NCBI GenBank assembly: GCA_019894885.1
Contig: JAGXNP010000003.1
Location: 1-47,080 of the forward strand
Source: Promethearchaeota archaeon
Lineage (GTDB): Archaea > Asgardarchaeota > Lokiarchaeia > Sigyniarchaeales > SOKP01
Length of the DNA: 47,080 nt
Direction of reading: 5' to 3'
The position numbers were made by a program, and so were the translations under genes. The notes below the pieces were generated by a model. That model was given only the letters and a program-made list of their open reading frames with translations, was not told the origin of the DNA and searched no databases. Position 1 is the first letter of the stretch, and each line of letters opens with the position of its first letter. Below, in pieces: positions 8,280 through 44,883 of the stretch.

Positions 8280-9170
8280 TTACTTTGCTAATTTTTCTTT
8301 TATTTGAGTAACCAACTTCTCACTTTCTTCAGAATCAGTCAAAAATTCAATATCCGATGGTGAGGTAACCCCTAATCCTAATTCTACTGCTCTTTTAATT
8401 TGATCTTGTCTAAAAATAGGACCTTTAGTAACCTCTGGAGTAGTCCCCAAAGCTCTCAATACCGCTACGCCTACAGCGTCGATTGCAATTTTGTCCGTGC
8501 CCGCAACGAAAACATTCCCTTCTACACGAGTTCCTTCCATAGGTCCTCGATCTACAAAAGTAATAACACCGTCCATGATAATTAGGTCAGGTTTGTAAAC
8601 AGAATTTATTTCTGCAATCATGTCTCTCTGATGTTCCGAGGAATGCAATTCTGACATATTTTTCTTTTTTACTATTCCTACTGCGTTCTTAAGCGATAAG
8701 GTGAAGTGTCCACCGTACATATGAGTCTTTAAACAGCAAGTTTCTATAATACATTCCGCTTCATCGTATATTTTCGCAAAAAAGAAACCATCTCTCCAAT
8801 GGCTGCCCTCTGGTTTTTTAAGGACATATTCATCTCGGGGTATTCTTGTTAAGTCAACGATCTTAAAATCCAATTCTTTTGCTAAAGCATTCAAGCCCTT
8901 TTTTTCAAAAACATCCGAAGTTTTAGCGGGACCGCTCCGTTCAGCAATAGTTATCGATTTTGCTCCCATTTCTTTTAACTTTATAATAAGCTGCTTTATT
9001 GTCTCCATTGAGCTTGAAGCCGGAGGAGGATCCGCAGTATTGAAATTTGGCTTGAAAATTACATCTTTGCCCTTAACGGGATTTAATCCTAACAACTCGA
9101 GGGATTTATTTACTCCATACACGCGATCGTTTGTAGAAATAACAGCAACTTTAGTCATTTTATTCACCAT
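8280..9170 (-). CDS. DUF362 domain protein
   Basis: 'VIFKPNFN', 'ERSG', 'CLKTHMYGGHFTLSLKNAVG', 'PDLIIMDG' and 'DKIAID' are the DUF362 signature motifs. Confidence 0.85.
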   Translation of the reverse strand: MVNKMTKVAVISTNDRVYGVNKSLELLGLNPVKGKDVIFKPNFNTADPPPASSSMETIKQLIIKLKEMGAKSITIAERSGPAKTSDVFEKKGLNALAKELDFKIVDLTRIPRDEYVLKKPEGSHWRDGFFFAKIYDEAECIIETCCLKTHMYGGHFTLSLKNAVGIVKKKNMSELHSSEHQRDMIAEINSVYKPDLIIMDGVITFVDRGPMEGTRVEGNVFVAGTDKIAIDAVGVAVLRALGTTPEVTKGPIFRQDQIKRAVELGLGVTSPSDIEFLTDSEESEKLVTQIKEKLAK

Positions 9171-9271
9171 AAATTAGGTAGCTAATTAGATGAATAAAAA
9201 TAAATTTAACTGTTTAGAAAATTCAGTCTCTATTTAATATTTGAAAATATCAAAATTCGACAAAGAAATTG

Positions 9272-10141
9272 CTAATTTAGTATTCGATTGAGCTTATTTC
9301 CAAGAACTTCGGGTAGTTCTCCAAGGTAAGAGTTAAGATCACAAAAAAGTAAATAAAGGTAAGGTTCAAATAAGCTATCAACCGTTGGACCTACATCCGA
9401 TTTATAGATATAGACCCATATTTGCTCACCCGCATGAGTAGATTGACGATAAATCCAATTTAAAGGTGGAATTTCTGGGATATTGCCAATATTTCTTAAA
9501 ATTTCGTGGATATCGTCGAAGGAATACTTTTTCCCGAGGCTCATTAGTGGTGAAAGGTCGAACGATGTAATACAAATGTCCCTTAAGCCGTAATTTTTCA
9601 TCTCTCTTAAAAAGTCGTTCCCTAATCGTTTTAGTTGAGTCTTATGTTCACTAACTCGGGCTTTGGCATCAAAGTCAGTTAAAATATTATAGATTTTTTC
9701 TTCCTGTACGGGTAATATCTCGATAGCAGACACTAGAGGGATTTTATATGTAATGAGCGAATCATAAATTAGCTTAATTTTTGCGTAAATTGATTTATGA
9801 AATAGATATGACTCTGTTTGACATGTAATTAAAACATCTCCAAAGAATTTGGTTTTATCCTTCTCAAAGTCTGAAGATTCGTCAGAATTAAATTCAAGTA
9901 TATGAATATTCTTAGACATCGCTCGTGCGAATTTAAATAATGCTGAAACTAACCCCGCGTTTAATTCAAAAGAATCAGATACCCCATAATCGGATTGAGG
10001 TTTTATTTCTTCTTTCGAAAAATCAAAAAATCGCAAATTTAATTTGATACCGGTGGGAGCTTCTTTTACATCCAAATTATAATAAGGAAATCCATTACTT
10101 GTAATAACCGAAAAATTATAGATAGTCAACTTTCTTGACAA
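9272..10141 (-). CDS. Hypothetical protein with longin-like N-terminal domain and a second alpha/beta domain
   Basis: 'IYNFSVITSNGFPYY' beta-hairpin followed by the helix 'LNAGLVSALFKFARAM' resembles the longin pattern of the 37143 and 41512 proteins. Confidence 0.55.
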   Translation of the reverse strand: MSRKLTIYNFSVITSNGFPYYNLDVKEAPTGIKLNLRFFDFSKEEIKPQSDYGVSDSFELNAGLVSALFKFARAMSKNIHILEFNSDESSDFEKDKTKFFGDVLITCQTESYLFHKSIYAKIKLIYDSLITYKIPLVSAIEILPVQEEKIYNILTDFDAKARVSEHKTQLKRLGNDFLREMKNYGLRDICITSFDLSPLMSLGKKYSFDDIHEILRNIGNIPEIPPLNWIYRQSTHAGEQIWVYIYKSDVGPTVDSLFEPYLYLLFCDLNSYLGELPEVLGNKLNRILN

Positions 10142-22415: not shown

Positions 22416-22979
22416 ATGGAAATTAAAACTCCAAAAATTGATTTAACATTTAAAATGTGTATATTTGGAGATTCACATGTTGGTAAATCAACATTGATCA
22501 ACCGATATATTACTGCTAAATTTGATCATGACCTCAAGTCGACTTTAGGAGCGGCAATTTTGATGAAATTCATAGAAACGGAAACTACGAGAATAACACT
22601 TCAAATTTGGGATTTTGGTGGAGAAAATAGGTTTACTTCTCTTTTACCTAGCTATGCTCAAGGATCATCTGCAGCAATTTTTATGTGCGACATTTCTAAT
22701 CATGATAGCATTACGAATATAGATAAATGGTTCTTGAAATTTAACGAAGGACTGAACAATCGGGATCCAAAATTTCCTCTAATTATAGTTGGTGGAAAGT
22801 TGGACTTAGAAGAACAGCGATCTTTTAATAAAAAAGATATTGAAACTATCTTTACAGTACGAAAAGAATTTGATTACCTCGAATGCTCTTCAAAAACCGG
22901 AGAAAATGTAAATTTGCTTTTTAAAACTATTGTCGATAAAGTGTTGATTTATAGAAAGATTAAGCCATCTATAAGATAA
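22416..22979 (+). CDS. Rab-like small GTPase
   Basis: G1 GDSHVGKS, G2 STLG, G3 LQIWDFGGE, 'RFTSLLPSY', G4 GGKLD, G5 ECSSKTGENV; no C-terminal Cys. Confidence 0.9.
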   Translation: MEIKTPKIDLTFKMCIFGDSHVGKSTLINRYITAKFDHDLKSTLGAAILMKFIETETTRITLQIWDFGGENRFTSLLPSYAQGSSAAIFMCDISNHDSITNIDKWFLKFNEGLNNRDPKFPLIIVGGKLDLEEQRSFNKKDIETIFTVRKEFDYLECSSKTGENVNLLFKTIVDKVLIYRKIKPSIR

Positions 22980-26859: not shown

Positions 26860-27669
26860 ATGGATTTATCGGACGAACAAATTAATAGGTATTCACGGCA
26901 GATTGTGCTAAAGGAAGTTGGTGGAATAGGCCAAAACAAGTTGCTAGATTCCAAAATTTCATTAATAGGATTAGGAGCTCTCGGATCCTCTGCTGCTTAC
27001 TATTTAGCTGCTGCTGGCGTCGGAACATTACAGATAATTGATTTTGATACCGTTGAATTATCAAATTTACATAGACAAATCCTTCATTTTACGAAGGATA
27101 TTAACAGTAAAAAAACTAGTAGTGCTGCAGATAAGCTAAACTCGTTGAATCCAGATTGTACTATTGAAATTGTTAACGATCACATTACTCCTAAAAATTC
27201 TAAAGCTTTACTTAAGGATTCGAACTTCGTTATTGAAGGTTCTGATAACATTCAAACTAAAATGCTCATAAACGATACATGTATTAGTTTAAAAATTCCT
27301 TTCACGATTGCGGGTGTATTGAGGTTCCACGGTCAAATTATGACTGTTGTTCCAGAAAAAAAGACATCATGTTATCGGTGCGTGTTCGGTGATATCACCG
27401 AGGTGGATTCAAGTATGTCGTGTTCTCAAGCGGGAGTAATTGGTTTCGTTCCTGGAGTTTTAGGTTGCCTAGAAGCCAATGAAGCGCTGAAATATATACT
27501 AAATATAGGTGATTTATTAACAAACAAAATAATGTATGTGGATCTTTTAAGAAACAGTTTTAATTTTATTGAAATACACAGAGATAATAAATGTATCGCA
27601 TGTGGGGACAACGCTAAGGATTTAGTTGAAGAAGCAAATTATGGGGGTTTAGATGCTTGCGATGAGTAG
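26860..27669 (+). CDS. moeB: MoeB/ThiF/UbaA E1-like adenylyltransferase
   Basis: RYSRQI, GLGALG, DTVELSNLHRQ, CYRC, catalytic SCSQAG, CIAC. Confidence 0.93.
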   Translation: MDLSDEQINRYSRQIVLKEVGGIGQNKLLDSKISLIGLGALGSSAAYYLAAAGVGTLQIIDFDTVELSNLHRQILHFTKDINSKKTSSAADKLNSLNPDCTIEIVNDHITPKNSKALLKDSNFVIEGSDNIQTKMLINDTCISLKIPFTIAGVLRFHGQIMTVVPEKKTSCYRCVFGDITEVDSSMSCSQAGVIGFVPGVLGCLEANEALKYILNIGDLLTNKIMYVDLLRNSFNFIEIHRDNKCIACGDNAKDLVEEANYGGLDACDE

Positions 27670-27925
27670 TATAGATAAACCAAGCTATAAAGAAAGCACT
27701 CAATTAGATATTCGAGGTAAAGTCTGTCCATTAACATTTGTTTACACTAAATTAGCATTAGAGGAACTAGAGACGGGTAGGATTCTAGAGGTATTTTTAG
27801 ATTTTCCTGCAGCTCTTAAGAATATTCCCGAAAGTTGTAGAAGACAAAATATTGCTGAATTATTAGAAATAAAGAAACACCATTCTGATAAACCGGAATG
27901 GATAATGATATTGAAAAAACTATAA
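27662..27925 (+). CDS. tusA: TusA/SirA-family sulfur carrier
   Basis: LDIRGKVCPLTFV, 'LEVFLD'; overlaps the E1 stop codon. Confidence 0.88.
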   Translation: MSSIDKPSYKESTQLDIRGKVCPLTFVYTKLALEELETGRILEVFLDFPAALKNIPESCRRQNIAELLEIKKHHSDKPEWIMILKKL

Positions 27926-28963
27926 ATGTCGGTGAGCTATTTCCTGAACGATATTACTAATGAGACCCCTATAGGTTTAGGTTTAATTTCTGGTGGTTTA
28001 GATAGTTTAATTGCATGTTTGGTTTTAAAATTACAGGGTATTAAAGTCGTTGCATTGAATTTCAAATCTCCATTTTGCATCTGTGATAAGGCCTATAAAA
28101 ATGTAGAATGCGGCTTAAATCTCTATTCCGATAAATTGGATATAAAAACTTATCATCTTCAGAAAGAAGACGATTATTTAGATGTAATTCAAAATCCTAA
28201 ATTTGGCTATGGTAAAAATTTGAATCCATGTATAGATTGTAGAATATACATTTTAAAGAAGGCAAAATTATTCGCTGAGAAAATTAATGCTGATTTTATT
28301 TTTACCGGTGAAGTCTTAGATCAGAGACCTAAGTCTCAGAATCTTAAAGCGTTAAGAATAATCGAGGAAGAATCAAATCTTAAAGGAAAATTGCTTAGAC
28401 CTTTATCTGCTTTAATGCTAAAACCAACTATTTTGGAACGAGAAGGATTAATTGATAGATCTAGGCTACTCGGGATTAAAGGGAGGAGTAGAAAAAAGCA
28501 ATTAGAACTCGCGAGAGCTCATGGTCTTTTGAACGAATATAACGCGTGTGGAGGATGTCTCCTTACAGAAAAAGAATTTGCTAATAGAATGAAAGACTAT
28601 CTTAAATTTAGCAAAAATCCTACCATGGAAGGGGTAACACTTCTAAAGTATGGCAGACACTTCAGATTTAATGGAGCTAAAATTATCATTGGGAGAAATG
28701 AATTAGAAAACGATTTTTTACTCCAACTAAAGGGATCGGATGGACTTATAATGGAAGCTTCCGATGTAAAGGGCCCGATAACCCTTATTCAGGGTAATGT
28801 TGAAGAGGCTGTAATTAAATTTGCTGCGAGATTGACATTAAGATATTCAGATGCTATAAAATCCCGGGGAGAAGTTATATATGGTAGAGATTCTAGCATC
28901 CTCAATGAATATTTATTAGTAGAAAAAGCAACTCAAGAATCATTAAAACCCTATCTTCTATAG
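27926..28963 (+). CDS. PP-loop tRNA thiouridylase-like protein (ThiI/MnmA-related, no THUMP) with C-terminal DUF814/NFACT-R-like domain
   Basis: SGGLDS PP-loop, PFCICD, NPCIDCR, TGEVLDQRPKSQ, LLRPLSA, CGGCLLT, GRHFR, GRNELEN. Confidence 0.8.
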   Translation: MSVSYFLNDITNETPIGLGLISGGLDSLIACLVLKLQGIKVVALNFKSPFCICDKAYKNVECGLNLYSDKLDIKTYHLQKEDDYLDVIQNPKFGYGKNLNPCIDCRIYILKKAKLFAEKINADFIFTGEVLDQRPKSQNLKALRIIEEESNLKGKLLRPLSALMLKPTILEREGLIDRSRLLGIKGRSRKKQLELARAHGLLNEYNACGGCLLTEKEFANRMKDYLKFSKNPTMEGVTLLKYGRHFRFNGAKIIIGRNELENDFLLQLKGSDGLIMEASDVKGPITLIQGNVEEAVIKFAARLTLRYSDAIKSRGEVIYGRDSSILNEYLLVEKATQESLKPYLL

Positions 28964-29019
28964 TTCAATACTTATCGTAGTGTAATATAAAAATACATAG
29001 GAGTTTGACTAAATTCTCT

Positions 29020-29307
29020 TTATCCTCCAGCTATTGCCGGCATTAGAAGAATTTCATCGTGATGGTTGACAATTGTATCTAAATTTTCAAGTGTACGTAT
29101 ATCTTTACCATTTAAACCTAAAATTATGTATCTACTTAAAGAATTCGGAGAATCTAATATCTTATTTTCAAAATTCTCTCCAAATTTAGAGATAAGTCTT
29201 CCTAGAATCTCCTTAATTGTAGCGTTATCTTGAACTGATATATTTAATTCTTTAATTTTAGTAATATCCGCTAATAACGATAAGAAATTTATTTTTATGT
29301 CAATCAT
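29020..29307 (-). CDS. MoaD/ThiS/SAMP ubiquitin-like sulfur carrier
   Basis: Beta-grasp pattern 'LNGKDI...LDT...DEILLMPAIAGG' with C-terminal Gly-Gly. Confidence 0.92.
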   Translation of the reverse strand: MIDIKINFLSLLADITKIKELNISVQDNATIKEILGRLISKFGENFENKILDSPNSLSRYIILGLNGKDIRTLENLDTIVNHHDEILLMPAIAGG

Positions 29308-29439
29308 TTGGATAATGTTAGGTTTTTTTATAATATCAATATTATATCCATTAACAAAAAAAAATTAAAAGAAATTAACTATTTTGGTTATAATTTGAAA
29401 ATATAATGTTCTTAGTGCAATTTAATATTAATCAGATCG

Positions 29440-30387
29440 GTGCTTTTAATTAGGAAAAATAAATTAAGGATTGGGCATCTCTCTACAGCTTACCATGCGA
29501 ATTTCGTATTAATGGGGAATAAGGACCTAAATCATGAATTTAATAAGGATATTCGATGGAAAATGTTTGGTACTGGTCCATCGATGGTTAAGGCTTTTCA
29601 AGACAATAAGTTAGATATTGGCTATATGGGATTGCCTCCTGCTATTATAGGGATAGATAATGAAGTTCCGATTAAATGTGTAGCTGGTGGTCATGTAGAA
29701 GGGACTATCTTAGTTGCTAATAAAGCATATAAATCAATGGCTCAACTTAATAACAACCTCTCTGATGTATTATCTCAGTTTAAGGGCTGTGCCATTGGAG
29801 TTCCAAGTAAAGGATCGATCCATGAAGTAATCCTTAATTTTTATCTAAAAAAATATAGTCTAGTAGAAGATATCGAAGTAAAACATTATAAACAGGCAGA
29901 ATTTATAGCTACAGACATGCAAAAGGAAATTTTGGGAGGAGGTGTTGGTACTCCCGCTTTAGCAGTTTTTTCTTCAACCATTTTTGATTCCCATCTAATA
30001 ATCCCCCCAGAATTTTTATGGAAGGATAATCCAAGTTATGGTATATTCTTTCATGAAAGTATGATTGAAAATGAACCTGAAACAGTATTAAAATTCTTAC
30101 ATCATAATAAGGAAGCATCTTTGATACTTAGAGAAACTCCCTCAAAGGCAGCTAATATCATATCAAAAACTTTTGAAATTTTAACTGAAAGGTACGTTTC
30201 AGAAGTGTTAAAAATCTCACCAAAATATTGTATAGCTCTTTCAGAAAGATATATTAAATCTACAATGGAATTCGTGAGAACTCTCAAAGAGCTAGGTTAC
30301 ATTAAAAAAGAACTGCGAAATGACGATATTTTTGATCTTATGTTTGTACAAGAAGTGCATCCTGAACCTGAACACTATTCTAAATAA
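29440..30387 (+). CDS. NMT1/SsuA/TauA-type substrate-binding-fold protein with no export signal
   Basis: 'GTGPSMV', 'LDIGYMGLPPAI', 'GGHVEG', 'IGVPSKGSIH'; no hydrophobic N-terminal segment. Confidence 0.8.
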   Translation: MLLIRKNKLRIGHLSTAYHANFVLMGNKDLNHEFNKDIRWKMFGTGPSMVKAFQDNKLDIGYMGLPPAIIGIDNEVPIKCVAGGHVEGTILVANKAYKSMAQLNNNLSDVLSQFKGCAIGVPSKGSIHEVILNFYLKKYSLVEDIEVKHYKQAEFIATDMQKEILGGGVGTPALAVFSSTIFDSHLIIPPEFLWKDNPSYGIFFHESMIENEPETVLKFLHHNKEASLILRETPSKAANIISKTFEILTERYVSEVLKISPKYCIALSERYIKSTMEFVRTLKELGYIKKELRNDDIFDLMFVQEVHPEPEHYSK

Positions 30388-30407
30388 GAGACACGAATAA
30401 AAAAAAA

Positions 30408-31286
30408 TTAGGTATTATTTCTTCGCCAGATTAGTAAAGAGATTAAGCCAATGGAGACTAATAATGCTGGGTAAACAATTACTTCTAATAAAGCAGGATT
30501 AGCATTATATCCAAATAGCGCTTTTAGCAATGCTCCGATAATTTCTAAGAATTCTAGAGTGGCTGGATTCCCATCGGGAAAGCTTTCCGGTAAAATGTGC
30601 TTAATGTTCCAAACTTCGTTAATAATCGGGGGAATTATTCCCGCTTCGATAAATTCGTGAATTCCATAAGTAATTAATCCCGCAGCGAACAGTATTAGCA
30701 TCACATTTGTTATTTTAAAAAATACCTTTAGATTTATGGATTTTATACCATAGAAAATTAAAAATCCAATAAGAATCGAAATTGTTAACCCAATAATAGA
30801 ACCTAATATAACACTAATTTGATTTAAGGACCCTATCGATGCGGAACCTGTCGTTAGCAGAACCAATTCTATTCCTTCTCTAATTATAATTATAAATGTA
30901 GTAATCGAAATCGAGAACACTTTTTGAGTTCTAATGGAATCTTCAACCTTTCCTTCGAGATTTTCTCTCATCTTTGGGCCTTCTTTGCTAACCCATAAAA
31001 CTAAAGTTAATATAAAAATCCCTGAAACGATAAATGTTGTTCCCTCAAAAATCTCTTCAAGTATACCGGTAAATCCACCAAATGCTATTGAGAATATTAT
31101 AGCAAATACGATGCTTGCAATTGTCGCTAAAATTATTCCTAGGTATACATATTTATAATAAATCTTTTGGTTGGTCTTCCTTAAATATAATAAAATTATT
31201 ACTACGACTAAGACAGCTTCTAATCCTTCTCTTAATGCTAAAAAAATCGGGATTGGTAGATCAACTAGTGATATCTGATTTAACAT
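30408..31286 (-). CDS. FTR1-family high-affinity iron permease
   Basis: Two RExxE motifs (LREGLE, IREGIE), 'AAGL...GIHEF', 'LFGY'. Confidence 0.93.
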   Translation of the reverse strand: MLNQISLVDLPIPIFLALREGLEAVLVVVIILLYLRKTNQKIYYKYVYLGIILATIASIVFAIIFSIAFGGFTGILEEIFEGTTFIVSGIFILTLVLWVSKEGPKMRENLEGKVEDSIRTQKVFSISITTFIIIIREGIELVLLTTGSASIGSLNQISVILGSIIGLTISILIGFLIFYGIKSINLKVFFKITNVMLILFAAGLITYGIHEFIEAGIIPPIINEVWNIKHILPESFPDGNPATLEFLEIIGALLKALFGYNANPALLEVIVYPALLVSIGLISLLIWRRNNT

Positions 31287-31357
31287 GTTTTAACCACCAT
31301 ATAAAATATTTTAAAGTAATTTTCTATGTAAATAAAGAAAAAATAGAGATTTAAATC

Positions 31358-31371
31358 TTAGGTTTATCTAA
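31358..31371. promoter_or_regulatory. Candidate DtxR/MntR-family metal box upstream of FTR1
   Basis: TTAGGTTTATCTAA (TTAG-N6-CTAA), about 70 bp upstream of the FTR1 start and directly adjacent to a minus-strand TATA-like TTTTTTATAT. Confidence 0.45.
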
Positions 31372-31638
31372 TATAAAAAAAGAAATCTCACTCGAAATAA
31401 GATTTTTCTTTTAAATCGTTAAAATTTATTAAATAAAAGTGATATTTAAATATTTAAATAAAAGATAATGAAAAAATTCATTATATAAATGATTGTAGCG
31501 TTTATTTACAGCACTTAATTATTTAAATACCGATTAATAAAAATAACTTTACAAGTAAAGTAATATCTTTATTTATTTCATTAACGAAATAAAAAACAAA
31601 AATTAACTCATAAAAACATACTTTTTGGTGGTAAATAA

Positions 31639-32472
31639 ATGAATATGACTCAATTGATCAAATGTATAATAGCAGTTGGAGTTGGTTTTTTCATGCTCCT
31701 CGTTGCGCCTATTCTGGTGCAGATTTCTCTGGAAGCTCTTTTAGGCGAACTTCTCATCATCGTAGTAACTCAACCCCAGTTTAGTAGTGGAATTACTCTA
31801 TTCTCCTTATTTTATCCTTTGTGGCGAGCTATAGGATATATAGCAGGAATTGTTCTATTAGCCATGGTCCCATCAATCTATAAAGGTAAGGAATGGACGA
31901 TGAAAGTGGAATTAACTGCTTATGCAGTACCAGCTGTTAGTGGAATGTTTATGTTTCTCCCTTATATAAGTTTCGTGGGAGGTTTCCCGATACCTATGAT
32001 AATCTCATTTGTTGGATTGCTGGGTTTTTGGAGTGTATTTTTATTTCAAAAATATGATAGTGTTCTTGAAAAAATAGTGAATATAATTACTTATACATTT
32101 ATAGGTATGCTGACTACACACGCGTTTGTTATAGGCGTTGGAGCACAAAGAATGTTACTCACACGCGCAGCGGCACCTCTTTTCGATGGTTTGGAATGGT
32201 GGATACTAACTCTATCAGGTGAGGTCAACTGGATGGCCGTTCTTATGCTCTTCGCTTCCATCCCTTTGATGGCAGAGCGTAAGAAGAATGGATGGTGGAT
32301 AGCATTAGTTGCGGCATTAACAATTGTAACGATCAATATTCCTACACAGATTATTCGAACGAGAACATTAGATTATCTGATAGGAGCGATACTTGCAGCT
32401 GGGTTACTAGCACTTCTATTGATATTTAAAGACCGCTTGATTGATGAGAACCAAACTAACTTAAGAGAGTAA
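31639..32472 (+). CDS. 8-TM membrane protein, distant paralog of 19780..20637
   Basis: Hydrophobic with a 2x4-TM appearance; GGTGG RBS. Confidence 0.75.
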   Translation: MNMTQLIKCIIAVGVGFFMLLVAPILVQISLEALLGELLIIVVTQPQFSSGITLFSLFYPLWRAIGYIAGIVLLAMVPSIYKGKEWTMKVELTAYAVPAVSGMFMFLPYISFVGGFPIPMIISFVGLLGFWSVFLFQKYDSVLEKIVNIITYTFIGMLTTHAFVIGVGAQRMLLTRAAAPLFDGLEWWILTLSGEVNWMAVLMLFASIPLMAERKKNGWWIALVAALTIVTINIPTQIIRTRTLDYLIGAILAAGLLALLLIFKDRLIDENQTNLRE

Positions 32473-32548
32473 TTTTCTCTTTTTTTTTCCTTTTTTGATG
32501 TAAATATTAGCATTAACTATTTATTTCAAAATAATTTATTTTGTTAAT

Positions 32549-32917
32549 ATGGTTATTTTTACCTTTGTAGTATGCGCTGAGCCTTATAAATTCGAAGCAC
32601 TAGACACGATGCTTAACTTAGGACAAGCAATCCTAAAGAAAGGTCATAAAATATTGGGGATTTTTTTTTATGGAAGCGGGGTGTATAGCGCAAAACGGGA
32701 AATACATATAAGTTCATCAATGAGAGATTTACCTAAACGACTCGAAAATTTTGTCAACGAGAATGATATGAACCTATCTGCTTGTAGCACATGGATGAAC
32801 TTTACTGGCTTAAAACCTGAGGAGTTAATCGAAAGAGCGTGTCAAGTAGGTTTAGGAGGATTATCAGAGTGGATGGCAGAATCAGATAGAGTAATAGTTT
32901 TTGGCCCTGGAGGATGA
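32549..32917 (+). CDS. dsrE: DsrE/TusD-like sulfur transferase
   Basis: 'EPY', 'GHKILGIFFYGSGVY', active-site-position 'SACS', 'GLGGL', 'SDRVIVF'. Confidence 0.85.
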   Translation: MVIFTFVVCAEPYKFEALDTMLNLGQAILKKGHKILGIFFYGSGVYSAKREIHISSSMRDLPKRLENFVNENDMNLSACSTWMNFTGLKPEELIERACQVGLGGLSEWMAESDRVIVFGPGG

Positions 32918-32921
32918 TAGC

Positions 32922-33290
32922 ATGGTTAAATCAGTAGTAATTTTATGTGAGGATTCTCCCATTGGTAAGAACTCAGCTGTCGAAGCGATCCGTATGGGTG
33001 CTGGAATTATGGCAGTAGGAGATCTAGATAAATGTAAGATAATCTTTATGGCTGACTCCGTCTACTTTTTATCCAAGAATTTTGACCCAGAGAAGGTCAA
33101 TAGGGACGCCCCTTCGAATATTTTTAGGATGATGGAACTTTCTGATTTAGAAGTTTACGCTCTAGATTCTGCTTTAGAAATTGCGGGCATTAACCATTCT
33201 GATTTAATAGAATTTGACAATATAAAAGTAGCAAGTATGCTAGAAATTTCAAAATTTATCTTAGAAGCAGATGTTATGTATAGGTATTGA
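32922..33290 (+). CDS. dsrF: DsrF/TusC-like protein
   Basis: MVKSVVIL...SPIG...EAIRMG, 'IFMADSVY', 'DSALEIAGI'; second gene of the triad. Confidence 0.75.
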   Translation: MVKSVVILCEDSPIGKNSAVEAIRMGAGIMAVGDLDKCKIIFMADSVYFLSKNFDPEKVNRDAPSNIFRMMELSDLEVYALDSALEIAGINHSDLIEFDNIKVASMLEISKFILEADVMYRY

Positions 33291-33299
33291 TATGTTGAG

Positions 33300-33650
33300 G
33301 TGATAATTATAGAAAATGAGAAAGCTATTGTATATCTATATGGATTCAGTACTAGAAAACGGATGTACATAGATAATTTGTTAGGTATTTTAAGTGAACA
33401 GACTAAAAATAATATTAGTATTGCAATCGTTCTAATTCACGATGGAGTAATAGGAACATCACAAAGAGGTACAATACCACGCTTATTAGATAAATTGTTA
33501 AACCTCTCAATATCGGTATTTGCACTGTTACCTGATCTATTAGCGCGAGGAATTGAACCAAATACGGTTGATCCTAGAATTAAATGTATTGAATACGAAG
33601 ATCTTGTGGAAATTTTAGCGGAAACTCCTAAAGTCGCTTCTTGGATGTAA
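33300..33650 (+). CDS. dsrH: DsrH/TusB-like protein
   Basis: 'VLIHDGV', 'DLLARGI', 'IEYEDLVEIL', C-terminal 'ASW'. Confidence 0.8.
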   Translation: MIIIENEKAIVYLYGFSTRKRMYIDNLLGILSEQTKNNISIAIVLIHDGVIGTSQRGTIPRLLDKLLNLSISVFALLPDLLARGIEPNTVDPRIKCIEYEDLVEILAETPKVASWM

Positions 33651-37142: not shown

Positions 37143-37895
37143 ATGAAGTTACACTCACTTTTTATTTTGACTAAGGCGGGAGCTTGTCTATACAGCAGAA
37201 ATATTACAAAAGATTTTGAGAATATAGAACCAAATCTGATAACACCTTTTTTCTCGGCTATTTTTTCCTTTTCTGAAAACGTTATTTCTAAAGAAACACC
37301 CGAAATCCTCGAAATGGGTGGTTTTAGAATAGTTTTCAAAGTAGAAGGTGAGCATATTTACGCTATTCTAGCAGATACAAGCGCTAATATTTTGTATATT
37401 AACTCTAGATTGGCTAGCATCATTCAAATATTTAAAGAATTCCTCCAGAATAACATAGTTGAAGATTACGAAAAAATCCAAAATAGCGACTTCGATGCTA
37501 AAATTGATTCGATTATAAAAGGGGAGGATGAATTATCTTCAAGTCAGCCATTATATAAAAAGATAATCGATCTTATTAAAAGATTAACCCTTGAAAACGA
37601 AATTCTTGGAGCAGCGTTATTTTCTATAAATGGAAATGTAATTTTTTCATCCTTACCGCATGATATATTATTGTCCTCTCTTAAAGAATTAGAAATTCGA
37701 CATATAGTAGCCAATGAATACTCCCTAACATTTTATAGTTTAGAGAACAATCAGAAAGTATTTTCGAGAATAATTGATATTCCCTGGAAGTTAGATCCGA
37801 TTTTGATAGTATTACTATATGAGTCTTCAGTCCCTCTTGGTATGGCAGAAGTGAATTTAGAAAAGATAACAAAAACTATTCAAAACATTATATAG
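37143..37895 (+). CDS. Longin domain + roadblock/profilin-like domain protein
   Basis: Longin pattern 'LHSLFILTKAGACLYSR...LITPFFSAIFSFSE...LEMGGFRIVF...IYAILAD'; second domain 'ILGAALFSINGNVIFSSL'. Confidence 0.75.
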   Translation: MKLHSLFILTKAGACLYSRNITKDFENIEPNLITPFFSAIFSFSENVISKETPEILEMGGFRIVFKVEGEHIYAILADTSANILYINSRLASIIQIFKEFLQNNIVEDYEKIQNSDFDAKIDSIIKGEDELSSSQPLYKKIIDLIKRLTLENEILGAALFSINGNVIFSSLPHDILLSSLKELEIRHIVANEYSLTFYSLENNQKVFSRIIDIPWKLDPILIVLLYESSVPLGMAEVNLEKITKTIQNII

Positions 37896-39250: not shown

Positions 39251-39460
39251 TTTTTATGCTTCTTTATCCTTTTGGTTACTCCTAAATTTTTTCTAGCCTA
39301 TTTCATTGTACTTGTATGTAAAAAAAGTATTTTGTGTCAAAAGAAAAACAATTTTTAAAAAAAAACCCTTTTATATATCATCATTTTTACCACAATATTA
39401 TATTCTAATTTAATTTTGATAACAAAAAACAAAATGTTATAAAAAAATTAGGGATCGTCT

Positions 39461-39952
39461 TTGGCAACAGATTATAGCGTAATATGTAAACTCGGAGGAT
39501 ATGTTAACAGCAATCCAGAACTCATTTCTTCCTATCCGTCACTTGATCAATCATTAAAAACAGAGATTCTACCAAAGTGTTTCCCAATTGGCGCTAAAAC
39601 TGGTGACTTTATCGTCGAAAAATATCGCAAATATGTTGTTTTATCTTATATTTTTAGGGTCAATCAAACAGCAGATAGAGACGATATCTTCTCATTATCA
39701 GTTCTACTTAATAAAAAAGATAAGACAGAAATTTACAAGCCTGTGCTTCAAAGTTTGATAGACAAATTAGAACAGAATGATCTCTTAAACGAGCATGTAT
39801 TAACTAAGAACCAACGAGCTATCTTTGAAGGGATGAACCAAGAAAAGAATGTTACTATTAGTAATGTCTTAATTGATCTTTCTAAAGTTTTTAAAGAAAT
39901 CAAATCTAAAATACTGAAACCAGAAATAAAAGTGAAAGGGAGTTTTTTGTAA
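39461..39952 (+). CDS. uDENN/longin-like protein (candidate GTPase regulator)
   Basis: 'PELISSYP...EILPKCFPIG' resembles the uDENN signature; beta4-loop-beta5 'VLSYIFRVNQTADRDDIFSLSVLL' followed by a helix. Confidence 0.55.
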   Translation: MATDYSVICKLGGYVNSNPELISSYPSLDQSLKTEILPKCFPIGAKTGDFIVEKYRKYVVLSYIFRVNQTADRDDIFSLSVLLNKKDKTEIYKPVLQSLIDKLEQNDLLNEHVLTKNQRAIFEGMNQEKNVTISNVLIDLSKVFKEIKSKILKPEIKVKGSFL

Positions 39953-39953
39953 A

Positions 39954-40595
39954 ATGGCAGAAGATTTTTTTTTATCAAGTCTTGGAATTGTGGCTAATCT
40001 TTCGAGTGCAATATTTATACCTATTGCGACATTAATTTTAGGCAGAAAGCTTCTCAAAGACAAGAAAGAAACGGGAAAATACAATATTATACGATTAATT
40101 ATATTTCTTTCTTTCCTGAACTTCTCGATATTAGCAATCATCGAGTTTCTTTTAAAAAATACCCCGTTAATTCCACCTTTTATAGAAGAATTATATAGCG
40201 CTGAATTCGGTTTCTATAATACATCTGTAGCTATTAGGGTGACCTTAGGTCTTACTTTGATTTTTTATATTAATAGATGGGAAATATTACACTTCTCAGC
40301 TATTTTCTTCTTCATTGGAATGTTATTTCTTTATTTATTTACTGGGTTTTCCGCTTGGCTTGAGAATTACACGATTATTGCAGGAGTTGCAAGCATTCTC
40401 TTTTTATACTTTACGGCATTTCGCATGAAGGACAATGGCGCTCTTAGTATAGCAATCTTTTTCACCCTAACATTTAGTATTCAATTTATTTCTGAAGCAT
40501 TGGTCTCAGAAATAATTATTATAAGTTATGTAGCTTTTGTTGTTATCTTCTCACTGGGATTGTTTAGACCATATAAACAGGAGGTAAATACTTAA
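39954..40595 (+). CDS. 7-TM membrane protein A
   Basis: Seven hydrophobic segments by eye; 1 nt from the upstream stop; paralog of the next gene. Confidence 0.75.
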   Translation: MAEDFFLSSLGIVANLSSAIFIPIATLILGRKLLKDKKETGKYNIIRLIIFLSFLNFSILAIIEFLLKNTPLIPPFIEELYSAEFGFYNTSVAIRVTLGLTLIFYINRWEILHFSAIFFFIGMLFLYLFTGFSAWLENYTIIAGVASILFLYFTAFRMKDNGALSIAIFFTLTFSIQFISEALVSEIIIISYVAFVVIFSLGLFRPYKQEVNT

Positions 40596-40596
40596 T

Positions 40597-41247
40597 ATGG
40601 CGGAGATAGGTTTCTTGTTTATGGAACTCGTTTATTTTACTATGGGGCTGATGACTGTTTTTACTACATTAAAACAATGGAAGATAAATAAAAACAGAAT
40701 GTTAATTGCTGTATCAATATATGTTGCAGCGGTATTGGTAACATCAATCATTGATATTTCAATCTATCTGTTTGACTTTGATATTGATATCCTGATAGCT
40801 GGAGGATTGACAATTGGAATGATTCTCGGGTTCATATTATTTACGATTCAATTAGAATTCATGTTCTATTTAAAGGATTTACCTAAACTATACACTCTTC
40901 CCTTTTTTGCCAGTTTTTATCTTGCATTCGGAAAAGTGTTAGTTGACTCAACAATACCTTTTATAATTTACGCGATGATTGTAAGTTACGGATCTGCCTA
41001 CTTTCTCATCAAAGACGGAAGGAAAAGTCGTAACGGATTAGCAATCGGAATGGGGCTATTCTTTCTCATATGGGGCCTAGGACAGACATTTCAACTTGAG
41101 ACTATAATCATTAGCTTTAGAATAGTTGCAATGGTGGCACTCTTATTAGGTACAAGAGGTTTTTATGAGAAATATGTATTCGTCAATGTAGAAGAAGAAC
41201 AGAAAATAATGGGAACCTGGATTGCAAAATTGGTAGTAAAGGAATAA
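40597..41247 (+). CDS. 7-TM membrane protein B
   Basis: Seven hydrophobic segments; GGAGGT RBS inside the upstream gene; shares 'NG(A/L)xxxxxFF' and 'FY(I/L)xxxxxL' with protein A. Confidence 0.75.
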   Translation: MAEIGFLFMELVYFTMGLMTVFTTLKQWKINKNRMLIAVSIYVAAVLVTSIIDISIYLFDFDIDILIAGGLTIGMILGFILFTIQLEFMFYLKDLPKLYTLPFFASFYLAFGKVLVDSTIPFIIYAMIVSYGSAYFLIKDGRKSRNGLAIGMGLFFLIWGLGQTFQLETIIISFRIVAMVALLLGTRGFYEKYVFVNVEEEQKIMGTWIAKLVVKE

Positions 41248-41511
41248 TAACGATTTTTTTAATTTTTTTCTTTTGCTATTAACCCAATCAGGGATATTAA
41301 TGAAATTTTAATCTAATTTTAGGTTTGTATTTTTACAATAGACTCTTTTTGTTCTACTGAAAAAAAGGAAAATAGGTTCAACAAAAAAATAATTCTGTGA
41401 CAATGTAACAAACAATAACATAAATAATTTCGTTTATAATTATAGTGTGTTATTATAGTTTCAAGATATAAATTATAGTACTATTTCTAAAACAATATAA
41501 GATAGAGTATA

Positions 41512-42408
41512 ATGGGAATTAAAGATATTTTGAAACGAGTATTTACTAAAGAAAAAAAAATTGTTATTACCGGACTTGACAGCGCTGGCAAAACCACCAT
41601 GATTAGTTTTCTACAGAATGGTACCTTTATGGAACATACACCCACAATGGGTAAAGAATTATCTCAAATTGAAGTACAAGGAATTCGTATAAATGTTATG
41701 GATATGGGTGGGCAAAAAGATTTCAGAGATTTATGGATTGGAGAAGCTTCGACTGCTGAGTGTGTAATATTTATGATAGACGCAGGGGCTCGAGAAAGAT
41801 TCAACGAAGCTAAAGACGAGCTATGGAAGTTATCTTCCATTTTTAAGAAGAAACCCCTGATAGTACTAGCAAATAAATACGATCTTCAACCTATTGCCTC
41901 TATTAGTGAAATTATTGCAGCTTTGAATTTGAAAGATTTACCCTCTTTTGAAGTATTACCGATTTCATGTAAAACTGGATATGGAATTGTAAAAGCATTC
42001 ATGAAGATGTACTATAAATTAACTGGTAAGCAACTGACCCAAAAGACAAGCCTTAGAGCTATTACCATTTTTGATCAGGGAGGAATTCCTTTAACATCAT
42101 CCTCAAATAAAGATATATTACAGGGGGGATTATTTACTGCCATTCATAATTTTGTGAGGGAATCTTTTAATTCTGAACTTGATCAACTTAAAATGGGAGA
42201 ACATCTTATCCTATTCAAACGATCGAAACATCTTATGGGCTCAATAATAGTTAATGATAATGATAATGTTGATATCAAAGAAGCAGAGTCAGGATTAAAT
42301 GATTTATTACTCCATTTAGAGCATATGTGTCCTGAGCTCGAGAAAGAACAATTAAATTATGGTAAAATCGAGTATTTAGTGGAACAATACGCTTCAAATC
42401 TGTTCTAA
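41512..42408 (+). CDS. Arf-family small GTPase fused to a C-terminal longin domain
   Basis: MG-amphipathic N-terminal helix, GLDSAGKTT, TPTMG, DMGGQKDFRDLW, VIFMID, NKYD, SCKTG; C-terminal 'AITIFDQGGIPL...GGLFTAIHNFVRE...LKMGEHLILF'. Confidence 0.88.
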   Translation: MGIKDILKRVFTKEKKIVITGLDSAGKTTMISFLQNGTFMEHTPTMGKELSQIEVQGIRINVMDMGGQKDFRDLWIGEASTAECVIFMIDAGARERFNEAKDELWKLSSIFKKKPLIVLANKYDLQPIASISEIIAALNLKDLPSFEVLPISCKTGYGIVKAFMKMYYKLTGKQLTQKTSLRAITIFDQGGIPLTSSSNKDILQGGLFTAIHNFVRESFNSELDQLKMGEHLILFKRSKHLMGSIIVNDNDNVDIKEAESGLNDLLLHLEHMCPELEKEQLNYGKIEYLVEQYASNLF

Positions 42409-42525: not shown

Positions 42526-44883
42526 TTATTTATTATTGAACTTCTCTAATAAACCTTTTTGAAGCTTTTCTATTGACTTTTTAATGTTATCAATAAAAAT
42601 TTTAATCTCTTTTCCAAGATTTGGGTTAATATCAATTGCTTTCTCGAGGTTTTGAAATGCCGCATGGTAATCGTTCTTATCTAAATAGGCGTAACCCATA
42701 AAAAGCCAAGCGAACGCATAATTCGGGTCTATTTCTGTTGCTTTTTTATAGGATTCAATTGCTATATTATATTGTTTCTCGTGTTTATAAGCGTTTGCCA
42801 AATTATAATGGGCTAAAGTATAAGTGGATTCAAATCCAACTGCTATTTTATAAGAATCTATTGCTTTATCAAATTTATTTAATTTTTCGTAACTAAAACC
42901 CATATTGTTCCAAGCTTTTGCGTGATTTGAATTGAGATCAATCGCTTTTTTGAAGTACTCAATCGCGTTTTTATATTCTTTTTTCTCGTTATTTGCGATC
43001 CCGATATAATAATATGCATCGATATGTGTACTATCTAATTCTATCGCTTTATTACAGTCTTGAATCGCTGTATCATAATCTTTCCTTTCAATTTCTAATT
43101 TCGCTTTATTTATCAACTTCAATTTGTATTCGTATTTTATAGCAATTCGATTTTTAAATTCTGGGCTTTTAATTGATTCGTTAATTGTAATGGCACTTTC
43201 AAAGTGTTCAAAAGCATCTTTAAAGCTTTCGCTATCAGCCAATTGAATACCTTGTTCGACTAATAGTTTAATTTTGGAATAAAATACCTCGTCAATAGAT
43301 TTCTTGATCTGCTCCATCTCTTGGAATCTACGCGTAGGGTCATCTATTGTTTTTGCATAATCCATTTTTTTATTTAGTTTATCTAACTCTTTTTCAAATT
43401 TCTGGAGTTCTTCAGATAAATCCCCACGATCTACTAAGTCTTTTAATTCTGCTTGATACACTAAACCTTTTATTTTATTAATTTCTTCTTCCATTTCTTG
43501 AGTTAGGTACATTTTATTAGTCATTTCTAATGCTCTGTTAAAACTTTTAATAGCTTCGTTGTATTTTTTACTCGCCAATTTATCATTTCCCTCCCTAACG
43601 ACTTCATCTATCTGAGCCAAATACACTTTGTTGACTGTATTTTTTAAATCTTCTAAGTCTTCGTTAGTTTCGTCAGAGATTGGTAATCTTTTTGCTACAC
43701 TAATTGCCGCATATAGATCATTAATAGCTTTTTCGTATTCTCGTTGCCCAATTTTTTGAATAGATTTTTCTTTAATAAATTTGATTCGAATTTTGCAAGT
43801 ATTATTAATAGAATTAGTTATTTCCCTTATCTTCTCGCTTTTCTCGTTTGAATCAGGCATTTTATTTGCTAATTCTAAGGATTTGTCAAATAAATCTAAT
43901 GCCTCATTCACTACAACTATATCTTCTTCAAAGTTATCTTTTATAATTAATTCTTTTCCTTTATTAAAGATGGGTTTAATTTTCTCCAAATAGATTGGAT
44001 TTAGCACCATTGATGCGATTGAATTAATTCTTTGTATTTCTGATTTCTTGTAGTCTGTGTCGTACATATTTTTAGAGATACTTACAGCTTCTTCGAATTT
44101 TTGAGCAGCGTCCTCGAAAGTGTTTTCTTCAAATAGTTTTTTACCATCTTCCATGATTACATTTATTTTCTCTGAGTATAAGTGATTAATTAAATTTATT
44201 GAATTCTTTTTATCTGTGTTTTTTAAGTCAGAATCAAAATACTTATCCACTAGTTCCAAAGCATTCTGGTATTCTTCAAGAGCTTTATCAAATTTATTAT
44301 TATCTTTAAATTGGTTAGCAGTTTCAATTAGAGGGGAAACTTTTAATGAATAAGTATGATTAATAGTATCTTCAATTTTTTTAATCATTTGATCTTCTAG
44401 ATCTTCCATGTAAAAATCTTTTGCAGCGTTTAGTGTGTCGTATAGCATACTTATGGCTTTATCTAACTCCTGCTTATTCTTCACTCGGACGGCTTGAAAG
44501 AGAGATTCTTCGATCCTTGTTTTATTTATTAGATAACTAATCTCTTTAACTTCATAATCTCTCAAATCTTTATCTACTATCTTATCAGCAATTCTCGCTG
44601 CTTCGTCGAATGTGTTGAAAGCGGAATCAAAAATTTCATTTTCAATGAATTTTCTTGCCTCGTCAATGATATCAATGATTTTTACAGAATATATTTGGTC
44701 AATTTGGGATTTAATGTTTGCTGTTTCATCTAAGCGCTCCTCTGGTTCTTTAACTGACTCCTCAACGAATTTCAGAGCTTCTAAATACTTTTCAACAGCT
44801 TTATTGTATTCTTTAAGGTTTTTAAATTCATTCCCTTCTTGCATGATGGAATTAAGTTTCTTTAAGTCAGATTTCTTTACCAT
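42526..44883 (-). CDS. Large helical-repeat protein: about 10 three-helix repeats of ~58 aa plus about 5 C-terminal TPRs
   Basis: Repeats of the type 'I..(G/A).......Y..A...Y..A......' with a third helix; canonical TPRs 'AYYYIG', 'AWNNMG', 'AHYNLA', 'AWLFMG'. Confidence 0.85.
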   Translation of the reverse strand: MVKKSDLKKLNSIMQEGNEFKNLKEYNKAVEKYLEALKFVEESVKEPEERLDETANIKSQIDQIYSVKIIDIIDEARKFIENEIFDSAFNTFDEAARIADKIVDKDLRDYEVKEISYLINKTRIEESLFQAVRVKNKQELDKAISMLYDTLNAAKDFYMEDLEDQMIKKIEDTINHTYSLKVSPLIETANQFKDNNKFDKALEEYQNALELVDKYFDSDLKNTDKKNSINLINHLYSEKINVIMEDGKKLFEENTFEDAAQKFEEAVSISKNMYDTDYKKSEIQRINSIASMVLNPIYLEKIKPIFNKGKELIIKDNFEEDIVVVNEALDLFDKSLELANKMPDSNEKSEKIREITNSINNTCKIRIKFIKEKSIQKIGQREYEKAINDLYAAISVAKRLPISDETNEDLEDLKNTVNKVYLAQIDEVVREGNDKLASKKYNEAIKSFNRALEMTNKMYLTQEMEEEINKIKGLVYQAELKDLVDRGDLSEELQKFEKELDKLNKKMDYAKTIDDPTRRFQEMEQIKKSIDEVFYSKIKLLVEQGIQLADSESFKDAFEHFESAITINESIKSPEFKNRIAIKYEYKLKLINKAKLEIERKDYDTAIQDCNKAIELDSTHIDAYYYIGIANNEKKEYKNAIEYFKKAIDLNSNHAKAWNNMGFSYEKLNKFDKAIDSYKIAVGFESTYTLAHYNLANAYKHEKQYNIAIESYKKATEIDPNYAFAWLFMGYAYLDKNDYHAAFQNLEKAIDINPNLGKEIKIFIDNIKKSIEKLQKGLLEKFNNK

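Follow-up and report, generated by a model that had tools for sequence, protein, structure and literature searches.

We have analysed a window of 47,080 nucleotides (nt), positions 1 to 47,080 of contig JAGXNP010000003.1 (assembly GCA_019894885.1) of a Promethearchaeota archaeon, focusing on a gene at 39461..39952 that codes for a protein of 163 residues, called the target in the following. The gene is real and conserved, and the predicted structure of its product is a longin fold, closest to the longin chains of GATOR1. Downstream of it lie the genes of two polytopic membrane proteins and of an ArfR-type GTPase. We propose, at about an even chance of being right, that the target is an arginine-finger subunit of a GTPase-activating protein (GAP) for this neighbouring GTPase and acts at the membrane together with the two co-translated membrane proteins. 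The proposal is made because of the fold class, a near-invariant arginine (R73) in the matching loop, a proline motif, and the conserved Arf-family neighbour with its glutamine.

The longin gene and its family

The gene and the parts of it that are discussed below are the following.

39461..39952, + strand: longin gene, TTG start, 163 residues, stop codon included (open reading frame, homologs, AlphaFold2 model, PDB matches)
39512..39517, + strand: N18-P19, at the site of the 'GP motif' preceding strand 2 (strand 2 is residues 19-25 in the model)
39662..39682, + strand: β4-β5 loop, residues 68-74, N-Q-T-A-D-R-D, followed by D75 (DSSP on the model)
39677..39679, + strand: codon AGA of R73, candidate arginine finger (Arg in 123/125 members; β4-β5 loop in the model)
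39935..39949, + strand: conserved C-terminal tail K-G-S-F-L (pLDDT 56-76 in the model)

A single open reading frame (ORF) holds both of the stretches quoted in the preliminary description of this DNA, 'NPELISSYP...EILPKCFPIG' and 'VLSYIFRVNQTADRDDIFSLSVLL', and its translation places Arg73 at the AGA codon given there. The window is AT-rich, with a GC fraction of 0.30-0.36. When the DNA ahead of the gene was aligned for the window and 12 loci, the longin start codons, ATG or TTG, fell in line behind a GTGAT-like Shine-Dalgarno stretch; counted over the window and 17 orthologs, ATG occurs 12 times and TTG 6 times. The gene is under purifying selection, the ratio of nonsynonymous to synonymous change (pN/pS) being 0.16-0.55 against seven orthologs.

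A word-indexed search returned 60 relatives of 40-100% identity, which apart from fragments have about 163-166 residues, and none of these 60 carries a Pfam domain or an informative name. In an exhaustive HMMER search through 1.84 billion cluster representatives, 72 representatives were found at E<=1e-3, 40 of them at <=1e-10 and 8 at <=1e-30. A profile search gave 77 relatives, one of which (P0123) stems from a Heimdallarchaeota metagenome-assembled genome (MAG). The relatives for which loci or close matches are available all come from Promethearchaeota (Lokiarchaeia-type Asgard) MAGs. By its sequence, the target is thus placed in an Asgard family of about 164 residues without annotation. All relatives recovered have about 150-225 residues. 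A search for longer, fused relatives, in which 7999 candidates were scored, yielded none, a negative that this search itself rates as weak evidence; the designation of the protein as stand-alone holds to this extent. No paralog of the longin is present in the window or in the 18 loci.

Three sets of sequences were used for the analysis of conservation. Alignment A1 consists of 26 of the 60 word-search matches. Alignment A2 comprises the target and 54 of the 72 HMMER matches, with 16 fragments or sequences of odd length and two near-duplicates (P0062 and P0064) left out. The family set of 125 members contains those of 145 stored proteins that have a length of 150-200 residues.

Against Pfam and NCBIfam the target gives noise only (PriX 0.043 and HpaR 0.0018, far under the cutoffs). 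When 68 relatives were scanned singly, a uDENN match was found in one of them (P0092, E 4.8e-4, 21.0 bits, under the cutoff of 22.3), and a match to the C9orf72-like model appeared at E 0.035 only in P0130, which is one of the 55 members of A2.

Predicted fold and structural matches

The AlphaFold2 model of the target, built from an alignment of 55 sequences, has a mean predicted local distance difference test score (pLDDT) of 94.5 and a predicted TM-score (pTM) of 0.88, and replaces the crude maps of secondary-structure propensity and periodicity. It consists of the strands 3-11 and 19-25, helix 30-40, the strands 50-55, 58-67, and 75-84, helix 89-105, helix 111-116/118-127, a small hairpin at 131-138, and helix 140-151. 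The model thus shows the longin order β-β-α-β-β-β-α-α with a short C-terminal addition. In it R73 lies within the loop 68-74, between the strands 58-67 and 75-84, in a block with a pLDDT of 97.

When the PDB was searched with the model by Foldseek, 12 matches reached E<=1e-3. Seven of them are chains of GATOR1/SEA complexes (9o5d_D, 8adl_S, 9h4q_T, 9o5a_H, 9v0j_A, 7t3b_B, and 7t3a_B), with query TM-scores (TMq) of 0.58-0.64 and root-mean-square deviations (rmsd) of 3.5-4.5 Å over 152-169 columns. The top match is 9o5d_D (E 2.4e-6, TMq 0.64, rmsd 3.8 Å, 155 columns), followed by 8adl_S at E 3.0e-6, and 6ces_N is also among the NPRL2-type matches. The remaining five are a Lokiarchaeota roadblock-longin protein (8yqg, two matches), zeta-COP (two matches), and DENND10 (one match).

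Entry 8yqg, a dimeric Lokiarchaeota longin domain released in 2025, is matched at E 9.5e-5, yet with a TMq of only ~0.4 and an rmsd of ~10 Å. This mismatch may reflect a swapped or otherwise packed form.

Five human entries are represented among the matches by two longin chains each, a shorter one of 362-370 and a longer one of 405-461 modelled residues, and it is always the shorter chain that has the better score (E 2.4e-6 to 9.3e-4, against 1.8e-3 to 4e-3 for the longer chain). NPRL2 has 380 residues, so the longer chain, with more than 380 modelled residues, is not NPRL2; from the modelled lengths we take the shorter chains to be NPRL2 and the longer ones NPRL3. On this basis the best solved matches of the modelled target are most likely NPRL2.

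The matches to longins of other GAP complexes are weaker, namely 6ulg_N (1.8e-3) and 8dhb_J (7.6e-3) of FLCN complexes, the Lst4 longin 4zy8_D (1.9e-3), and the C9orf72/SMCR8 chain 7mge_C (0.021, TMq 0.37); the uDENN domains of DENND1A/B (6ekk_A and 3tw8_C) are matched at ~6e-3. Since the GATOR1 chains score better than the FLCN, SMCR8, and uDENN chains, 'NPRL2-like' is a better label than 'uDENN-like' or FLCN-like. Of the earlier label 'longin/uDENN-like', the longin part is therefore retained on the evidence of the model, and the uDENN part, for which the target itself gives no family-model match, is given up.

The Atlas model of the relative P0123 (pTM 0.77) agrees with this picture over residues 1-167, with TM-scores of 0.71 and 0.69 to Npr2/NPRL2 and of 0.69 and 0.71 to NPRL3; it also matches Promethearchaeota Arf-GTPase proteins of 341-347 residues at 0.56-0.58. 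In a feature search with the target, the nearest Promethearchaeota cluster (score 0.90) carries Pfam NPR2 on 19% of its members.

R73 and other conserved residues

In eukaryotes, the arginine fingers of longin GAPs sit in the β4-β5 loop, and R73 of the target is predicted to lie in this loop too, as the preliminary description had supposed. The residue is an arginine in 26/26 close sequences (A1), in 52/55 diverse representatives (A2), in 123/125 full-length members, in 52/54 representatives at less than 50% mutual identity, and in 42/44 clades (FastTree, cut at depth 0.8). Its conservation among homologs, proposed earlier as a check, is borne out, and P26, P42, and R73 are the only positions of A2 that reach at least 90%. 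The two exceptions among the full-length members are P0130, with Pro, and P0104, in which Lys is directly followed by Arg, probably a misalignment by one column. P0076, which with 225 residues falls outside the length filter, has Lys in this column. The arginine is encoded by AGA in 9, CGA in 6, and CGC in 3 of the window and 17 orthologs.

The spacing S-x-x-F-x7-R, which had been aligned without gaps to FLCN, is found exactly in 73/125 members and is a less robust feature than the arginine itself: the distance from F65 to R73 is 8 residues in 106/123 members and 7-12 in the remainder, the loop tolerating insertions. Position 74 is D or N in 104/125 members and position 75 is D in 108/125.

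P19 is kept in 113/125 members; the residue before it is mostly Asn (102/125) and seldom Gly (8/125), with a genuine G-P at 18-19 in three divergent members. A G-P motif directly ahead of strand 2 is described for C9orf72, SMCR8, FLCN, and NPRL2, where it spatially adjoins the finger, and as missing from NPRL3, FNIP2, and other non-GAP longins (PMC12290439; here and below, published work is cited from the accessible portions of the papers).

The C-terminal tail, which follows a basic helix and is poorly ordered in the model, is conserved as well. Of the 125 members, 113 have G160 and 121 have a hydrophobic residue at 162; in the clade of the target G-S-F occurs in 52/55, the chain ending in K-G-S-F-[LF]. 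A mean-field direct coupling analysis of the 125 sequences (effective number 79) gave no interpretable strand ladders.

The same residues bear on a reading in which the longin would be a non-catalytic platform for the same GTPase, that is, a subunit of a guanine nucleotide exchange factor (GEF), a scaffold, or an effector, with R73 serving in binding or in the stability of the fold, for example by pairing with D74 or D75. Such a role would be in line with the N-P that stands in place of G-P ahead of strand 2 in 102/125 members, with the additional matches of the fold to NPRL3-length chains (1.8e-3 to 4e-3), zeta-COP, sigma-adaptins, DENND10, and Fuzzy, and with the P0123 model, which fits NPRL3 as well as NPRL2 (0.69-0.71); roadblock/longin dimers are, according to Tran et al., mainly GEFs and occasionally GAPs (PMC10933270). 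We nevertheless regard it as unlikely, in view of the fact that the sole family-wide conserved polar residue is an arginine in the finger-bearing loop of the fold class, that the NPRL2-length chains outscore the NPRL3-length chains in 5/5 entries with both, and that a Pro-containing motif is kept at a place where it is reported as missing in NPRL3, FNIP2, and other non-GAP longins (PMC12290439).

The ArfR-type GTPase

The GTPase is encoded 1.5 kb downstream of the longin, has 298 residues, and consists of two domains.

41512..42036, + strand: G domain of the ArfR-type GTPase, residues 1-175, with the catalytic Gln68 at 41713-41715 (Pfam Arf)
42037..42408, + strand: C-terminal domain of the longin/roadblock superfamily, residues 176-298, stop codon included (model, Foldseek)

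The G domain matches Pfam Arf at 6.8e-34. Its best PDB sequence matches are 8OUN/8OUM and 8OUL/8OUK, which are GerdArfR1 and HodArfR1, respectively (10.1101/2024.02.28.582541), and then Arl3 and Arf1. The P-loop, the switch-I Thr45, the D64-x-x-G-Q68 motif, and N-K-x-D are invariant in 16/16 orthologs, and the N-terminus forms an amphipathic helix as judged from the hydrophobic moment.

The model of the C-terminal 123 residues has a moderate pLDDT of 73.6 and the order β-β-α-β-β-β-α-α. With Foldseek it matches sigma-adaptin, LAMTOR, Mon1/Ccz1, and the longins of Sec22b and VAMP7 at a TMq of 0.5-0.66. Lokiarchaeota are known to have such fusions of a GTPase with a longin (PMC4917890, PMC10933270, 10.1101/2020.10.19.343400). 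A sequence and profile search of the PDB with this domain was empty, and so were those with the two membrane proteins and with a 250-residue longin-like protein encoded at 37143-37895. An hhalign comparison of the longin family profile with the C-terminal domain, with the G domain, and with each half of the protein at 37143-37895 gave probabilities of at most 1.4%.

A motif F-[DN]-x-G-G-x-P at 42070-42090 (+ strand), in the turn between strands 1 and 2 of the C-terminal domain, is present in 16/16 orthologs. Its aromatic-Asp/Pro spacing resembles W33-D34...G38-P39 of C9orf72 (PMC12290439), a likeness to be taken as a lead only.

The gene neighbourhood

The neighbourhood was compared by BLASTP, ORF by ORF, across 18 species-level genomes. 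Between the longin and the GTPase lie the genes of the two membrane proteins.

39954..40595, + strand: polytopic membrane protein 1, 213 residues, ~7 transmembrane helices (hydropathy), translationally coupled to the longin gene
40597..41247, + strand: polytopic membrane protein 2, 216 residues, ~6-7 transmembrane helices (hydropathy), third gene of the unit

The stop codon of the longin and the start of membrane protein 1 are separated by 1 nt in the window, and the distance stays between -1 and +1 nt when the 17/17 loci are included. Wherever the longin gene is complete (17/17 loci, two of them ended by a contig edge), the order longin, membrane protein 1, membrane protein 2 is kept. Neither membrane protein has a Pfam, NCBIfam, or PDB sequence match, and a comparison of one with the other gives a BLASTP E of 4.1 and an hhalign probability of 1.1%. 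The stop codon of membrane protein 2 is followed by a T-rich run, which opens a spacer of 264 nt before the GTPase.

Both membrane proteins have a basic loop past the first helix and share a conserved K-D...N-G loop past approximately the fifth helix (R157-x-K-D-N-G162 in the first and K138-D-G-R-K-S-R-N-G147 in the second). These common loops hint at a distant duplication and at a cytoplasmic docking site.

The GTPase is part of the neighbourhood in 15/15 loci that reach far enough, downstream of the other genes in 14 and upstream in one (L017). The longin of L017 is only 40% identical, and in this locus the GTPase gene is located directly upstream and the flanks differ; the upstream genes of L016 differ as well. 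In L018 (6980-7110) one deletion, with GAATTC at the junction, fuses longin codon ~15 to GTPase residue ~180 out of frame. Missing as a result are the greater part of the longin gene, the genes of the two membrane proteins, and the G domain of the GTPase; this could be a joint loss or an assembly artefact.

In L017, a stand-alone paralog of the GTPase C-terminal domain, with 150 residues (8827-9279; 29% identity, E 1e-14), follows membrane protein 2.

The longin and the GTPase have in addition a conserved sequence element upstream.

39333..39347, + strand: conserved element TGTG-N-CAA-N-A-NN-ACA with 1 mismatch, 128 nt before the longin start
41396..41410, + strand: second copy of the same element with 1 mismatch, 116 nt before the GTPase start

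The 15-nt element is found exactly twice in the window at <=1 mismatch, a count that is not significant by itself, 22/100 shuffles reaching 2. Both sites are, however, conserved in the upstream alignments, and 13/13 exact matches in the 18 loci sit in the intergenic regions upstream of the longin or upstream of the GTPase. In the loci where the test window covered the motif (it missed several), 13-17 of 21 positions agree between the two copies, with shuffle p values for their similarity of 0.004 in L002, L004, and L010 and of 0.064 in the window. The element is not present upstream of the GTPase in L017 and has diverged upstream of the longin in L008, L009, L011, and L013. It is possibly, to judge from the sequences, a transcription-factor site that co-regulates the longin and GTPase units.

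The conserved linkage, the changes of the flanks in L017 and L016, the deletion in L018, and the shared upstream element argue that the four genes would form one functional module. The module can also be seen with the membrane proteins at its centre: the longin would then be a cytoplasmic regulatory subunit of a membrane complex (a transporter or a receptor) made of the two polytopic proteins, and the GTPase would be connected loosely or not at all. The close spacing of longin stop and membrane protein 1 start (a gap or overlap of at most 1 nt throughout), with membrane protein 2 next, would be expected from such an arrangement, as would the separate upstream region of the GTPase and the T-rich run past membrane protein 2, and the K-G-S-F tail could serve as a docking peptide. 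It would leave aside that the GTPase is kept with the three genes in 15/15 informative loci, the rearranged L017 included, that it has the same upstream element, that it is lost along with the other genes in L018, and that the proteins structurally nearest to the longin are without exception regulators of GTPases. We therefore think it rather improbable as an alternative; as far as the membrane complex itself is concerned, it also fits a GAP role of the longin if the membrane proteins are the anchor.

It is appropriate to consider here also that the longin may be an arginine-finger GAP whose substrate is not the neighbour but some other small GTPase of the genome, be it a Rag-like, a Rab-like, or a further Arf-like one. 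Asgard genomes encode very many small GTPases, whose regulators are generally located outside their operons (PMC10933270), and NPRL2, the closest match, acts on Rag and not on Arf (PMC8213707). A candidate of the Rab type is encoded in the window itself.

22416-22979: Rab/Ras-like small GTPase (Pfam Ras 1.6e-36)

However, this gene is 17 kb away, its linkage to the longin is not seen in the loci, and there are no longin or roadblock matches among its neighbours. Of the two GTPases that the preliminary description had named for GAP assays, only the Arf-like one (15/15 loci) is thus linked to the longin; the Rab-like one, ~17 kb away, is not. The conserved neighbourhood with the ArfR-type GTPase and the upstream element common to both units speak for the latter as the partner, and its architecture, a G domain followed by a C-terminal longin/roadblock domain, is itself Rag-like. 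We accordingly consider a GAP role toward a distant GTPase to be very unlikely.

The 250-residue protein at 37143-37895 has sub-threshold longin matches in its N-terminal half, with Fuz_longin_1 (2.6e-4) and Sybindin (9.5e-4) as the best scores, and Fuz_longin_1 and Sybindin are matched in 11/12 orthologs. Its gene is located two positions upstream of the longin in 13 loci, though not in L016 and L017, with the gene of an oxidoreductase dependent on flavin adenine dinucleotide in between.

Proposed mechanism

In the mechanism that we propose, the stand-alone longin of the NPRL2/FLCN/SMCR8 class would bind the GTP-bound form of the ArfR-type GTPase and insert R73 from the β4-β5 loop beside the γ-phosphate. 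The arginine would act jointly with Gln68 of the GTPase itself, so that GTP hydrolysis becomes faster and the GTPase is switched off. The site of action would probably be the cell membrane, because the N-terminus of the GTPase is an amphipathic helix as in Arf proteins and the longin gene is coupled to those of the membrane proteins, and the two polytopic proteins could anchor or regulate the longin. The binding of the longin to the GTPase, the stimulated hydrolysis, and the partnership with the membrane proteins are what we infer from the data above. The GAP interpretation of the preliminary description is in this way partly supported: it survives the in silico tests of conservation and loop position of R73, and the catalysis is putative.

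A number of observations weigh against a GAP function of the longin. No match to the Pfam models NPR2 (PF06218), Folliculin, and C9orf72-like is obtained with the target at E<=1, and the weak uDENN (4.8e-4) and C9orf72-like (0.035) matches are the sole family-model signals among the 68 relatives. Sequence and profile searches of the PDB with A1, A2, A5, and P0092 gave no longin GAP, only designed helical repeats and chance matches. The structural identity of the target to NPRL2 is 8-16%, the rmsd is 3.5-3.8 Å (at 8-12% identity), and it is from fold scores that we infer the equivalence of R73 to NPRL2 R78. In most members the motif is N-P instead of G-P, and the conserved R-D-D could be a structural salt-bridge cluster. 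The 18 species-level genomes behind the synteny all belong to a single archaeal class, so that a part of it may be shared ancestry, and the tightest coupling is that of the longin to the two membrane proteins, the GTPase having its own upstream region of 264 nt. Most longin and roadblock proteins are, moreover, GEFs or scaffolds and not GAPs. All known longin GAPs, finally, work as heterodimers inside large assemblies, whereas a partner longin of the target is putative, the candidates being the C-terminal domain of the GTPase and the longin-like protein at 37143-37895.

A more far-reaching version of the proposed GAP function can be formulated from the first of these candidates. The arginine-finger longin would pair with the C-terminal longin/roadblock domain of the GTPase to give a heterodimeric GAP, one half of which is fused to the substrate, and the two 7-TM-like (seven-transmembrane-helix-like) proteins would be a membrane receptor or sensor that times the delivery of the finger. 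The four genes would then amount to a minimal GTPase switch docked at the membrane, prefiguring the longin-GAP systems of the eukaryotic lysosome (GATOR1-Rag, FLCN-Rag, and C9orf72/SMCR8-Arf-PQLC2). This is a speculative idea that we doubt in its full form. If true, no cognate GAP of an Arf-family GTPase from Asgard archaea would have been identified before this one, and the longin would be a single-domain form resembling an ancestor of the catalytic subunits NPRL2, FLCN, and SMCR8.

Comparison with known systems

NPRL2 (Npr2 in yeast), the subunit of GATOR1/SEACIT that is a GAP for RagA/Gtr1, shares with the target the longin topology, an arginine in the region of the β4-β5 loop, and a Pro motif before strand 2. 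The residue numbers are also similar, 73 in the target and 78 in NPRL2, whose Arg78 is the proposed equivalent finger for RagA (PMC8213707). In contrast to NPRL2, the target consists of the longin domain alone, with 163 residues and without the C-terminal part, and no longer relatives were found. No equivalents of NPRL3 or DEPDC5 were identified either, and the neighbouring GTPase is of the Arf type by sequence.

The closest functional analogy to a longin beside an Arf-type GTPase and membrane proteins would be the SMCR8-C9orf72(-WDR41) complex. This longin pair is an Arf GAP, in which Arg147 enters the active site of ARF1, and it is recruited to the membrane by a polytopic transporter (PMC8213707, 10.1101/2020.04.15.042515). 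Neither a DENN domain nor a WDR41-like gene goes with the target, however, and the structural match is weak. The accessible text of Zhu et al. reports only two Asgard candidates for a C9orf72-SMCR8 complex, both without the Arf-interacting regions (PMC11914678).

FLCN-FNIP2 (Lst7-Lst4 in yeast), the GAP for RagC/Gtr2, resembles the target in the fold class and in the principle of the arginine finger, FLCN Arg164 likewise entering the active site of RagC (PMC9473554). The match is clearly weaker than to the GATOR1 chains, and the target again lacks a DENN domain. With respect to the uDENN family (Pfam PF03456), it has neither a model match nor a DENN domain downstream.

MglB (the GAP of MglA), Ragulator, TRAPP, and Mon1-Ccz1 are small α/β platforms on small GTPases and belong to the same broad superfamily (PMC10933270). 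They are weaker or missing among the matches of the target, yet they are the best ones for the C-terminal domain of the GTPase. MglB and the other roadblock/longin platforms are not known to use an arginine finger in trans.

The 'NPRL2-like longin domain' is an established category of Asgard signature proteins in the asCOGs of Liu et al. (10.1101/2020.10.19.343400, PMC9834061), and 15 Asgard longins of the FLCN/SMCR8 type with GP motif and arginine finger have been suggested to be GAPs for ArfR or Rag GTPases (Traffic 2025, PMC12290439). The target very probably belongs to the same superfamily as these published proteins. That arginine-finger longins of Asgard archaea may be GAPs is thus already in print, and the addition made here is the candidate GAP-GTPase pair. 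The family of ~164 residues, its operon with two membrane proteins, and its link to the ArfR-type GTPase were not found in a literature search that left supplementary sequence lists aside; the family may already be contained in such lists (PMC12290439 Data S1; bioRxiv supplements).

The interest of such a pair follows from two published surveys. Zhu et al. carried out a structure search of 52 Asgard proteomes for Arf GAPs, with the identities of the regulators still to be established according to the accessible text (PMC11914678), and according to Tran et al. operons that join a GTPase gene to longin or roadblock genes are the exception, so that the matching of regulators is hard (PMC10933270). 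The window supplies a concrete candidate pair, a small NPRL2-like longin, easy to express, with a near-invariant arginine and, beside it, an ArfR-type GTPase with which it is apparently co-regulated and is lost jointly in the single deletion observed. If the GAP activity is true, arginine-finger longin GAPs predate the eukaryotes, which bears on the origin of GATOR1/FLCN/C9orf72 nutrient signalling. If there is no GAP activity, caution is called for in assigning an 'Arg finger' from conservation in Asgard longins, as is proposed in PMC12290439.

Other features of the window

The gene at 42526-44883 on the reverse strand runs convergently toward the GTPase gene, keeps its syntenic position in most loci, and encodes a protein of 785 residues with many TPR repeats and a match to the MIT domain (PF04212, 4.1e-7) at residues 184-238. 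PADLOC gave no match to a defence system in the window, and tRNA and Rfam scans of it returned nothing. The count of TTTATATA in the window is below chance, and a scan for bacterial promoters and terminators stayed below the shuffle expectation, its models being bacterial and not applicable to archaea. Finally, a cluster of ThiF-like, ThiI/NFACT-R, and DsrE/DsrE/DsrH-like genes at 26860-33650 looks like a sulfur-relay or thiolation set.

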